The notes under the pieces are model-generated. The model had not been told where the DNA came from, ran no database searches, and saw nothing but the letters and a program-made list of their open reading frames with translations. From the IMG/VR virus record IMGVR_UViG_638341196_000003: DNA of 19,177 nt. The stretch is one strand, 5' to 3'. Every line of letters starts with the position of its first letter. The first letter of the stretch is position 1. This document shows positions 6,194 through 9,421 of this stretch, in pieces. The stretch is from a virus (Duplodnaviria; Heunggongvirae; Uroviricota; Caudoviricetes). The position numbers and the translations under genes were made by a program.

Positions 6194-6372
6194 TCATTTA
6201 GGAATAATAGAATGCAATTCGTGACTCACCTGGATTTCATAGTGTTTCAATAGTTCTCCGATGTTAATTCCTACTACCTTACGAACTGCGCCGAGGGAGA
6301 AGTTAAGCTCCTCAATGCCCGGCCGATCTGGCGTTGAATTCATATAGTGTCGGCACGCACGGACAATTGACT
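6194..6372 (-). pseudogene. 3' segment (last 58 codons plus stop) of the HNH-like cargo gene interrupted by the IS911-like element
   Basis: Minus-strand frame at 6370 continues in phase the frame ending at 8845 once the IS and one copy of the ACT duplication are removed. The N-terminal residues of listed ORF 6194-6451 lie inside the IS end and are an artefact. Confidence 0.6.
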
Positions 6373-6380
6373 TGAAGTGG

Positions 6381-7220
6381 TCAACAAAAACTGGCCACCG
6401 AGTTAGAGTTTTTCCAGTATCGATTTTCCGATTCGTTTGGGGGTAACCCACCGTTATATTCGTGCGGTCTTAGTGCGCTGTAATATCCAACGATATAGTC
6501 CGTTATGGCGTGAGCTGCCTCGCTGAAGCTTACGTAACCCACCACCGGCATCCATTCGTTCTTCAGACTCCTGAAGAAGCGTTCCATTGGGCTGTTATCC
6601 CAGCAGTTTCCGCGCCGGCTCATACTCTGTCTGATCTGGTATCGCCACAATAACTGCCGGAACTGCCTGCTCGTATAATGACTGCCCTGATCGCTGTGGA
6701 ACATCACCCCGCCGGGCTTACCACGGGTTTCCCATGCCATTTCCAGCGCTTTCATGGTGAGCCTGCTGTCCGGCGAGAACGACATGGCCCAGCCCACTGG
6801 TTTTCTTGCGAACAGGTCGAGAACAACGGCGAGGTACGCCCAGCGCTTACCCGTCCAGATATAGGTCACATCACCGCACCACACCTGATTTGGCTCGGTC
6901 ACGGCGAACTGCCTTTCAAGGTAGTTAGGGATAGCAACATGTTCATGACCACCACGTTTATACCGGTGAGTCGGCTGCTGACAGCTAACCAGCCCCAGCT
7001 CTTTCATGAGCCTGCCAGCAAGCCAGCGTCCCATCTGGTAGCCTCTCCGGGTTGCCATTGTGGCGATGCTTCTTGCTCCGGCCGAACCATGGCTGATGCC
7101 ATGTAGCTCAAGTACCTGACTGCGTAATACAGCCCGTCTGCCGTCTGGTTTTTCAGGACGGTTTTTCCAGTATCTGTAGCTGCTGCGATGAACCCCGAAC
7201 ACTTGGCAGAGTGTGACCAC
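6381..7220 (-). CDS. IS911-like transposase OrfB (DDE domain), separated from orfA by the IS30 insertion
   Basis: 279-aa ORF with IS3-family integrase-core motifs ([18 protein letters not shown], ...[12 protein letters not shown]); stop 8 nt from the element end. Confidence 0.8.
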
Positions 7221-7288
7221 AGGATAATGCGCTCTGAGTTTCCCGATTATCGAGAACTGTTCAGGGAGTCTGACATCAAGAGCGCGGT

Positions 7289-8509
7289 TGTAGATTCAAT
7301 CTGTCAATGCAACACCCCTTTCAATTATATCTTTCGGTGTTTTGAACTTCAGTGTCTTTCTCGGTCTGTTGTTTAGCTGAGCAGCAACCAGATCTAGTTC
7401 ATGTTGAGTATATTGGGCAAGACATGTCTTTTTAGGAAAGTACTGCCGAATTAGCCCATTTGTGTTCTCATTTGTTCCCCGCTGCCAAGGACTCTGAGGA
7501 TCGCAGAAGTAAACTTTAACGCCGGTGCTGACAGTAAATTCTAGATGTCTGGCCAGTTCCATTCCTCTGTCCCATGTCAGTGATTTTCTGAGTTCTGACG
7601 GTAAACTCAGGAATTTGTCGGTAAGAGCCTGATTTACTGAGACAGAATCTTTGCCCCTGAGTCTAAGGATGATCGTATAACGTGATTTTCGGTCTACAAG
7701 TGTGGCTATATGAGAGTTTTTTGTACCTGAGACTAAATCGCCCTCCCAATGCCCCAGAGAGCGTCTGTTATCGATATTTCGGGAACGTTCGTGAATTGGT
7801 GTTCCGTTCACTATGTTAATCGTACCTCTTTCGCCTTTGCGGGTATGACGCCTGCCATGGCGAAGGCTATGCGACCGTCGCAGATGCTGTATATTCAGGT
7901 GGTGTAGCGCTTCACGGCTACGAAAGTACAGCGTTTTATAAATTATCTCAGGTGATATTCGCAGCGTTTTTTGACGTGGTTTTGTTCGCCTTAACCATCC
8001 TGATATTTGCTCTGGAGACCATTTCATCTCCAGCTTTTCCAGAACAAGCTTTCGCAATGGTAAATTTTGATCCAGTAAGCACGGTTTTGGCCTTTTCGCC
8101 ATTCTGTTGGCTCGGTTATTAGCATCAACAGCTTTGTAATAGCGTCTGCCCCGATTACGCTGAACTTCACGTGAGATCGTCGAAGGACTGCGATTCAGCG
8201 CAGTAGCTATCGCACGAATGCTCATTTTGGCTGACAAACCAGCTCGTATCTCCTCGCGCTCAGACAGTGTCAGGTGAGCTACAGCCCGCTTACGCTCATG
8301 GGGTTTTATGCCGCCAGTATCCCTTAACATAGTGAAGATCGTTCCGGGTTTTGAACCCAGGATATTCGCTATTTCACTGAAGCCTGTTCCGTTCTTCCAT
8401 AGTTCAAAAACAGAGGCTTTTTCCTCTGCTGTAAATGTTCGTCTCATTCAAAAAACCTCCGCAACCCCATGTTTTCACATAACTGTTGCGTTGACCAATT
8501 GAATCTACA
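7289..8509 (-). mobile_element. IS30 insertion sequence, complete (1221 bp), nested inside the IS911-like element
   Basis: Terminal repeats TGTAGATTCAATCTGTCAATGCAACACCCC (7289-) and ...CAATTGAATCTACA (-8509); 2-bp duplication GT at 7287-7288 and 8510-8511; 383-aa transposase. Confidence 0.9.
7296..8447 (-). CDS. insI: IS30 transposase
   Basis: 383-aa product [31 protein letters not shown]... matches IS30 transposase from recall. Confidence 0.9.
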
Positions 8510-8510
8510 G

Positions 8511-8772
8511 TAGCCTTTTTTAATATTTCATTCTCCATTTCAATGCGTTGTAGCTTTTTCCTCAGCTTACGTATTTCGATTTGTTCTGGTGTTATCGGAG
8601 AGGCTTTTGGTGTTTTGCCCTGACGCTCATCACGCAGTTGTTTGACCCATCTTGTCATTGTGGAAAGGCCAACATCCATAGCTTTGGCGGCATCTGCCAC
8701 CGTGTATTTCTGGTCAACAACCAGTTGAGCGGATTCGCGTTTAAACTCTGCGCTAAAATTTCTTTTTTTCAT
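8511..8772 (-). pseudogene. IS911-like orfA, 5' portion (codons 1-88) cut by IS30; the last 12 codons and stop resume at 7288-7247
   Basis: [56 protein letters not shown]...EILKKAT, then IS30; downstream of IS30 the frame reads [12 protein letters not shown]-stop. Confidence 0.8.
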
Positions 8773-8844
8773 TGGAGCACCTGTGTTGTTCTGAGGCGAG
8801 CATATCACCTCTGTTCAGGTGGCCAAATTCAGTGTGCCACTTCA

Positions 8845-9421
8845 ACTCGACGATCAACGATAGCGGAGACTCAGGTGCAATCTCGGAGCGAATCGCCGTA
8901 AGAGAGAGTCGGAGCTCCTTCAAAGAATCCGAGACTCGTGCTGGATCCTCTTGAGCATATGGCAGATAAAGAGAACTCTTGTCTTCCAATAAATGGATCA
9001 ACCGCAGAGCAATTTTCTCGTCTGGGCGATGCGATAGAAATTGAAACATTAGCCTCTTTCCTCCCTCCAAGCACTCCTTCATTAGTGATTCGTGGTTACG
9101 TTTCCATTTTCGCAAATACTCGGCGGGGTAGCCCATACCGCCATTCTTATCAACTAAATCAGCACAAGCTCCGCACAACCATATAGCATTTTTTATGCTC
9201 TTCCGCTCTGTTTCTGACTGAGACATGTCATAGCGCGGTCCGCCAGGGCTCGCCGCGCAGATATGCGCCGCCTCACCCGTCTTGATAGAAAGATTTTCCG
9301 CCAATTGATCCGGGCCGATTGTTACCCTATGACAAGAGGGATTGCTACAAATATATGTAGCGCGCTCTGCTACCTTACCTACAACGCTTGGAGGAAAGTT
9401 GTGCCTATTTGTCTTGGTCAT
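8845..9421 (-). pseudogene. 5' segment (codons 1-192) of the HNH-like cargo gene interrupted by the IS911-like element
   Basis: ATG at 9421; product carries CSNPSCH...GEAAHICAASPGG...NAIWLCGACADLVD, an HNH-type Cys/His/Asn signature with non-canonical substitutions. The tail of listed ORF 8753-9421 beyond 8845 is read-through into the IS. Confidence 0.6.

Follow-up and report, generated by a model that had tools for sequence, protein, structure and literature searches.

The window analysed here is a 19,177-nt stretch of DNA (IMG/VR record IMGVR_UViG_638341196_000003) corresponding to a decayed P2-like prophage adjoining trhP (yegQ), and on its minus strand, between positions 6194 and 9421, it contains the two fragments of an interrupted gene. 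We identify this feature, with near certainty, as a pseudogene, in which the insertion sequence (IS) IS911 has split an allele of a stand-alone 250-aa gene at codon 192/193 and was itself later hit by IS30. The intact gene is predicted to encode an HNH nuclease domain followed by a DUF6650 domain, and the balance of the evidence modestly favours reading it as a stand-alone Cap5-type HNH DNase fused to a DUF6650 sensor or switch, with an anti-phage role. The copy in the window is dead and without function of its own, as commonly happens when IS elements expand, and the family is more useful than this copy. Part of the context is already known, as the family is present in Pfam and PGAP, an E. 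coli allele has been predicted to be defensive, and a neighbouring gene is a validated defence system.

Reconstruction of the interrupted gene

From its start at 9421, the minus-strand open reading frame (ORF) runs without a stop to the IS boundary at 8844/8845. Deletion in silico of 6370-8844 (equivalently 6373-8847), which takes out IS911 with one ACT copy and joins 9421-8845 to 6369-6194, gave a 753-nt ORF of 250 codons plus the stop at 6194-6196. A preliminary description of the window, made from the sequence alone, had proposed an ORF open from 9421 to 8845 and a frame resuming in phase to this same stop, giving 192 + 58 codons, and both points were borne out on translation. It had also suggested looking for uninterrupted alleles in other genomes, and these exist: using the 1846-nt joined sequence in a BLAST search of 5426 complete E. 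coli genomes, we recovered it as a single uninterrupted piece in 15 of them, with 99.5-99.7% identity, and at least 99.5% over the junction. The 15 genomes annotate a 250-aa coding sequence at the site (WP_000169362.1, WP_059356353.1), from which the rebuilt protein differs by only 2-4 residues, and the intact alleles have one ACT, common to both flanks (10171-10173 in locus L001). As uninterrupted 250-aa alleles exist, the frame obtained by joining the two fragments did not arise by chance.

The insert begins with TGAAGTGG at 6373 and ends with CCACTTCA at 8844, has terminal inverted repeats, and its IS911 copy is 99.9% identical to the annotated 'IS3-like element IS911', with ORFs in the IS911 region at 8404-8808 and 6381-7220. 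The preliminary description had treated 6373-8844 as one IS911-like insertion, and while IS911 and its ACT repeats stand, the insert is not a single IS, as a copy of IS30 (99.8% identity to annotated IS30) lies inside it and encodes a 383-aa transposase (7296-8447) with HTH_38 and rve domains. The orfA/orfB region of IS911 is split by IS30, so the element that inactivated the gene is dead in its turn. The last 58 residues of the rebuilt protein, read from the IS911 end, are found identically in a 76-residue 'partial' protein of Shigella dysenteriae (P0131), whose contig is recorded in 8 samples. On this evidence the window most probably derives from S. dysenteriae, a lineage in which the insertion is fixed.

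Domains of the intact protein

Residues 1-118 are assigned, from sequence and model searches, to a Cap5/SPARHA-type HNH (His-Me-finger) nuclease domain. The rebuilt protein contains the motifs CSNPSC (residues 25-30), AAHIC (51-55) and NAIWLCGACADLVD (78-91), and PADLOC profiles matching residues 5-119 include PDC-M68A (8e-24), CBASS 'Endonuclease' effectors, SAVED_HNH and an HNH-bearing SduA profile. In a sequence search of the PDB the SPARHA HNH-APAZ effector 9om4 was the best match (1.6e-10), with several Cap5 structures also found, and fold searches using a structure model likewise returned Cap5-type HNH nucleases with a beta-beta-alpha-metal fold. The HNH/beta-beta-alpha-Me nuclease proposed in the preliminary description is therefore upheld by PADLOC, PDB sequence and fold searches alike. 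Of the two substitutions it had called unusual, CA in place of CH is real and reflects a family-wide loss of a metal ligand, whereas AH in place of HH is the norm of this subfamily, as PsCap5 itself has A55-H56.

In PsCap5, His56 acts as the general base, His91 and Asp95 are Mg ligands, and Glu53 and Asp92 form a metal bridge (PMC12141522). Alignment places H53 of the rebuilt protein on His56, E50 on Glu53, A87 on His91, D88 on Asp92 and D91 on Asp95, with N78 as the HNH structural Asn. Conservation was counted over 51 family members spanning 40-94% identity, and H53, N78, D91, K92, N93, C25, C83, C86 and R20 were present in all 51, with C30 in 50. The two Cys pairs, C25/C30 within CSNPSC and C83/C86 within CGAC, are thus kept in 50-51 of the 51 and form a putative four-cysteine zinc knuckle. 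Residues 11-20 form an N-terminal helix, in which K16, E19 and R20 are conserved, and this corresponds to the HNH dimerisation helix of Cap5 and SPARHA, whose HNH domains are activated by tetramerisation through the N-terminal helix (PMC12738770).

Residues 120-250, modelled as an all-helical four-helix bundle, are assigned to the DUF6650 (PF20355) domain, also on sequence grounds, which the preliminary description had missed. The precomputed PF20355.5 annotation is present on all but one of 120 listed homologues, with P0001 (94% identity) among those that have it, and the PGAP name of the intact allele WP_000169362.1 is 'DUF6650 family protein'. Furthermore, a profile built from C-terminal-only fragments of the family (A4), searched against 1.84 billion representatives, retrieved 712 proteins, many of them stand-alone proteins of 150-180 residues and others of 340-410 residues with the domain at the C-terminus. 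Three of these matches, P0187, P0200 and P0208 (E-values of 1e-14, 1e-13 and 3e-13), were scanned and scored above the gathering score of PF20355.3, with 59.8, 53.8 and 57.2 bits, respectively; P0187 and P0200 are stand-alone DUF6650 proteins and P0208 has 224 aa. A word-indexed search with the C-terminal alignment found only 17 fragments of the same family, with P0131 among them.

Fused and stand-alone forms have in common an LE..E..S..R..ACR..R..G..P motif, which in the numbering of this protein comprises L145-E146, E158, S166, R171, A197-C198-R199, R222, G226 and P249. Within a 36-sequence alignment (A5), L145, E146, E158, R171, R222, G226 and P249 are invariant. The IS insertion falls in the middle of this signature and parts R171 from the ACR199 and R222 motifs, with the 3' fragment of the gene holding the conserved A197-C198-R199, R222-K223, G226 and P249.

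Genomic neighbourhoods and a proposed function

We clustered the flanking ORFs within 3.5 kb of a full-length family member at 27 loci, which come from Proteobacteria, Bacteroidota, Acidobacteriota, Clostridia and others, and no neighbour family recurs across them, save for lambdoid phage genes in three related prophages. Domains found among 106 flanking ORFs at 24 of the loci were SMC_N/AAA_23 (four), PIN (two), HEPN (two), DUF4062 (two) and nSTAND-WD40 (one), which looks like defence-island company without a consistent partner. No TIR family was among the 25 listed of the 152 families, those matched by at least two of these 106 ORFs, a threshold at which a single TIR neighbour is possible, and no TIR gene was present among the called neighbours carrying Pfam records. 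In Aeromonas the family member is a lone gene between housekeeping genes, in lambdoid prophages of E. coli, Citrobacter and Buttiauxella it is a moron between the Q antiterminator and holin genes, and in Xylophilus, Maribacter and Pedobacter it occurs in varied chromosomal neighbourhoods. A related 351-aa DUF6650 protein (P0146) is encoded at an integrase-proximal island end beside smpB, and the contig of the stand-alone P0187 is short and gave no informative TIR neighbour, the adjacent gene product having a GYF_2 domain. As a separate observation, DUF4062 proteins are encoded within about 2 kb of the HNH-DUF6650 gene at two unrelated loci (one at 7034-8164 of L018).

The HNH-DUF6650 gene is best read as a stand-alone, single-gene unit, because no partner recurs and because homologues of the 261-aa and 227-aa products encoded beside it in the window occur only with a near-identical cassette. 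The preliminary description had raised the convergent 261-aa neighbour as a possible partner, and we considered a two-gene system of this kind, for example a toxin/immunity or sensor/effector pair, which the IS would have disabled. The two genes do adjoin and travel together with the 227-aa gene as a cassette of about 3.4 kb, both here and in E. coli islands, and all three score as defence genes in DefensePredictor. However, the 261-aa protein protects when cloned alone, as WP_061089765.1 ('HEP3', DS-29) gave protection of up to about 6 logs (PMC13092281). The two genes are also convergent with a terminator-like hairpin between them, no neighbour family recurs over the 27 loci, and tblastn found 261-aa and 227-aa homologues only at three loci with near-identical cassettes and at no other fetched HNH-DUF6650 locus. 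With a neighbour that protects alone and no co-recurrence outside the cassette, we regard such a two-gene system as very improbable indeed.

We also considered that the gene is not an immune gene and encodes a selfish or housekeeping HNH enzyme, such as a homing endonuclease, a stand-alone enzyme of restriction or Type IV kind, or a nuclease that processes phage DNA. Its best matches by far are the HNH domains of the defence effectors Cap5, SPARHA and PDC-M68A, there is no adjacent methyltransferase, and the gene is not inside a host gene or intron. In addition, the HNH domain is joined to DUF6650, so far linked only to defence, and the gene sits at moron and hotspot positions beside other defence genes. 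We judge a non-immune role improbable on these grounds, and consider a defence role of the HNH-DUF6650 protein likely.

Published work of 2025-26 was the first to connect DUF6650 to defence, along two lines. In type VI Thoeris, operons encode a TIR protein together with a DUF6650 protein named ThsG, which responds specifically to 2'cADPR (an isomer of cyclic ADP-ribose, cADPR) and which modelling depicts as a homo-hexamer, tube-shaped and with basic pockets where protomers adjoin; transmembrane helices occur at the N-terminus of some ThsG proteins, and the killing route of the others is stated to be unclear (bioRxiv 10.64898/2025.12.03.692087). The same preprint makes no mention of an HNH or any other nuclease fusion (bioRxiv 10.64898/2025.12.03.692087). 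Separately, DefensePredictor names five DUFs not previously linked to defence, one of which is DUF6650, through DS-27 ('SMEK', WP_087896215.1), a 299-aa TIR-less protein of SMEK_N plus DUF6650 that defends alone (Science 2026, PMC13092281). Its Table S5 lists WP_059356353.1, from an ECOR strain, as a 'Predicted novel defense gene' with a log-odds of 5.48 (PMC13092281), which makes this a tractable E. coli allele flagged by a published predictor, as a computational prediction only. The allele lies at 3024-3776 of contig NZ_RRWI01000012.1 in assembly GCF_003892435. Neither the HNH-DUF6650 architecture itself nor its implication of DUF6650 as a portable sensor module was found described in the searchable literature.

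The protein resembles several of these systems in part. It is like Cap5 (HNH-SAVED; PsCap5 8FMF and 9DIF, Asticcacaulis Cap5 7RWK) in its general-base His, structural Asn, Asp95-type Mg ligand and N-terminal helix, and in placing a nuclease and a C-terminal regulatory domain in one polypeptide. However, Cap5 has a SAVED domain where this protein has the helical DUF6650, the protein here is about 130 residues shorter, and the HNH-DUF6650 family has kept neither the Mg ligand His91 of Cap5 nor its metal bridge of Glu53 and Asp92. With ThsG it shares family membership (PF20355) over its C-terminal 130 residues and, with stand-alone DUF6650 proteins, the Glu/Ser/Arg motif set, but ThsG has been described as bare or fused to transmembrane helices, whereas this protein has an N-terminal HNH and no adjoining TIR gene (ThsB) was detected in the window or, among the families listed, at the 24 loci scanned. 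DS-27 is likewise a single E. coli gene without a TIR partner, and it too has a putative effector domain at the N-terminus and DUF6650 at the C-terminus; its N-terminal domain is SMEK_N and not HNH, and divergence between the two DUF6650 halves is too great for them to match directly, pairwise or by profile. SPARHA HNH-APAZ (9OM4, PMC12738770), the best sequence match in the PDB, becomes active when it oligomerises and does not discriminate between sequences in cutting DNA, but it has an APAZ domain and a short Argonaute partner, neither of which is present here. PDC-M68 protein A is the best PADLOC match, for the HNH part only.

Membership of CBASS and of type VI Thoeris proper was rejected, and the protein does not fit PDC-M68 either. 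For CBASS, the SAVED_HNH profiles match over their N-terminal 110-120 positions only and there is no CD-NTase in the window; type VI Thoeris proper is set aside as the window has no TIR gene; and for PDC-M68 the match is confined to profile positions 5-113 out of 253, with different C-terminal halves. Six flanking window proteins were scanned and gave no PADLOC match, so no PDC-M68 partner was seen nearby. No paper on PDC-M68 was found in the literature, and the protein accessions were not in the main text of the papers found.

We propose that in the intact protein H53 would act as the general base, N78 as the structural Asn and D91 as the Mg ligand, while the DUF6650 module, by analogy with ThsG, may oligomerise and serve as sensor or switch. 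The trigger could be a small nucleotide (e.g. a cADPR isomer) or another infection cue, and a nucleotide might be bound through the cluster of E158, S166, R171, R199 and R222. By analogy with Cap5 and SPARHA, activation would then juxtapose the HNH domains as a dimer of dimers so that both DNA strands are cut, and indiscriminate DNA degradation could lead to abortive infection. The gene would act alone, and it travels as cargo in the P2 Z/fun region, at the moron site between Q and holin genes of lambdoid prophages, and at the integrase-proximal ends of islands. Ligand-gated activation through DUF6650, which draws on the analogy with ThsG, is a tentative part of the scheme and rather less likely than not. 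A further possibility, which we hold to be doubtful, is that HNH-DUF6650 proteins are TIR-independent 'orphan receptors' of a cADPR-like nucleotide made in trans, which would switch on the DNase; the nucleotide would come from a TIR protein, whether of Thoeris or not, at work elsewhere in the cell, from a co-resident mobile element, or from the infecting phage.

Several observations weigh against reading the intact protein as a DNase controlled by DUF6650 and active against phage. Position 87, the equivalent of the PsCap5 ligand His91, is A in 28, S in 22 and G in 1 of the 51 family members, and E50 and D88, equivalent to Glu53 and Asp92, are each present in 18 of 51, so that the Cap5 active-site geometry is not fully preserved. 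PDB fold searches with the C-terminal domain returned generic four-helix bundles only and no informative relative. When the rebuilt protein, its C-terminal half and P0001 were scanned against local Pfam and NCBIfam, nothing matched, even at E <= 10, and the local PF20355.3 model scored the 54%-identical paralogue P0065 at 20 bits, below the threshold of 27. The hhalign comparison of the family alignment with DS-27 showed no signal, a null that is uninformative because the template was one sequence. No signal-producing enzyme is encoded near the gene, and WP_059356353.1 is absent from the tested sets of DefensePredictor (Tables S6 and S7; PMC13092281). As to the local Pfam result, the model was evidently broadened between PF20355.3 and PF20355.5, and the negative is unreliable because the former misses the HNH-fused subfamily that the latter covers; the transitive link through profile A4 was built because there was no direct local match.

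The variability at these metal-site positions also bears on whether the HNH domain is catalytically degenerate, leaving a DNA-binding or scaffold protein in which any toxicity or defence would come from DUF6650 assembly, as in ThsG proteins without an enzymatic domain. In keeping with this idea, there are stand-alone DUF6650 proteins, 150-180 aa long, that become toxic once activated, by a route stated to be unclear. On the other side, H53, N78 and D91-K92-N93 are invariant over 40-94% identity, which is hard to explain without catalysis. Many His-Me-finger nucleases, among them the Cas9 HNH, T4 endonuclease VII and I-PpoI, use a single Asp or Asn metal ligand, and one Mg ligand may also be enough for activity here. 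We therefore consider degeneracy decidedly improbable and retain the DNase reading.

Judging by the HNH-DUF6650 fusion, DUF6650 would seem to be a portable switch, for sensing or oligomerisation, and not itself the effector, and the fusion offers DNA cleavage as an easily assayed read-out for what DUF6650 senses without a TIR partner. Were the orphan-receptor reading correct, DUF6650 would rank with SAVED, CARF, SLOG and STING as a modular domain for sensing nucleotides, and a recruited enzymatic effector domain would be one route to toxicity for DUF6650 effectors without membrane helices.

Gene flanks, cassette and prophage

Upstream of the start codon the sequence reads ATGAAAAAAACAAAGAAGCATAACTTTTATGACC, and it contains an imperfect copy of the first nine codons of the gene. 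An ATG here opens a 14-codon ORF, MKKTKKHNFYDQDK, which runs from 9449 to 9405, is out of frame and ends 13 nt inside the gene; the 9-codon upstream ORF with a TAATG overlap described previously is absent from the sequence. The same duplicate is in frame in P0002, a 91%-identical relative of 259 aa (MNKTKKHTF-MTKTNRHKF). In the window the copy could serve in the control of translation or be no more than a relic. A consensus scan of the 70 nt between the start codon and IS630 found no sigma-70-like promoter. Downstream of the gene there is an intrinsic-terminator-like hairpin with its stem at 6143-6150/6164-6171 and a U-tract at 6134-6142 (RNA fold -22.1 kcal/mol, z = -2.6), which the consensus terminator scan missed because the loop exceeds 8 nt. 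The terminator previously placed at 6125-6161 thus exists as a terminator-like hairpin, with its position shifted by about 10 nt. The features of the window are collected in Table 1.

Table 1. Positions of the interrupted gene, the elements that interrupt it and the neighbouring features in the window.
Feature	Coordinates	Strand	Remarks
Disrupted gene, 5' fragment	8845..9421	-	Codons 1-192 and first base of codon 193
Predicted HNH domain, within 5' fragment	about 9068-9421	-	Residues 1-118
Predicted DUF6650 domain, first half, within 5' fragment		-	Residues 120-192
Disrupted gene, 3' fragment	6194..6369	-	Remainder of codon 193, codons 194-250, stop 6194-6196
ACT target-site duplication	6370..6372 (left), 8845-8847 (right)		
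IS911 (IS3 family)	6373..8844	-	2472-bp insert; own sequence 6373-7288 + 8510-8844
IS30	7289..8509	-	1221 bp, nested in IS911; GT duplication 7287-7288 and 8510-8511
Imperfect 27-nt tandem copy of first nine codons	9405..9449	-	+1 nt offset; MKKTKKHNF vs MTKTNRHNF
Intrinsic-terminator-like hairpin	6134..6171	-	Downstream of gene; GGCGAAGC, 13-nt loop, GCUUCGCC, then AUUUUUCU
261-aa gene	5247-6032	+	Intact, convergent with 250-aa gene; N246I only difference from WP_061089765.1
227-aa hypothetical protein	2899-3582	+	100% identical to WP_000141343.1
IS3-family element	~1493-2819		
IS4-family element	~3676-4976		
IS630	~9493-10645		TA duplication

The prophage has tail-fibre H/G genes at 1-1002 and the sheath gene FI from 10942, followed by tube, tape-measure and gpD-like (VgrG-related) genes, and the cassette of 227-aa, 261-aa and 250-aa genes lies between G and FI. 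This site is the P2 Z/fun variable region, a hotspot, and with P2-type H/G and FI genes flanking the cassette, the earlier proposal of an IS-inactivated, nuclease-like cargo gene at a defence hotspot agrees with our analysis. The cassette has been struck by four independent IS insertions, including IS911::IS30. An IS-free version is found in E. coli islands with Ag43, a YeeU-family antitoxin and antirestriction genes, where it takes up the integrase-proximal end, and with the IS elements removed the cassette (window 1029-10749) is at least 99% identical to 7476-10920 of L001, with a left flank of 98.5%. The cassette is bounded by an inverted repeat of 37 nt, imperfect, with its copies at 1043-1079 and 10722-10758. 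P2-like phages share the left edge (1011-1079), and the P2-EC46 Z-region record, in which left and right inverted repeats are annotated, has ends that match both edge regions. The presence of the cassette in both the P2 Z/fun site and E. coli islands suggests exchange between phage hotspot and island, with defence cargo passing between these elements.

Another HNH protein is encoded in the P2-EC46 record (L002, AJ512680), where ORF2 (488-1594; 368 aa, 'putative lysogenic conversion protein') has a similar HNH N-terminus, with 39% identity over 121 residues, and a different C-terminal half; a similar gene is present in a Yersinia P2-like phage. As these P2-EC46 and Yersinia genes resemble the one studied here, the P2 Z/fun hotspot repeatedly carries HNH-plus-variable-domain proteins.

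With regard to the other cassette genes, DS-29 has a weak HEPN-like integron domain, and with its intact copy the decayed prophage may still carry a working defence gene. The 227-aa protein has, by eye, a hydrophobic, membrane-helix-like stretch at its N-terminus and no match in Pfam, NCBIfam, PADLOC or PHROGs, and DefensePredictor classes it as a predicted novel defence gene with a log-odds of 5.34 (PMC13092281). The prophage as a whole shows the heavy degradation typical of Shigella, and its tail-tube gene (12145-12558) is apparently truncated, encoding 137 aa that match positions 2-62 of the 168-position TIGR01611 model.

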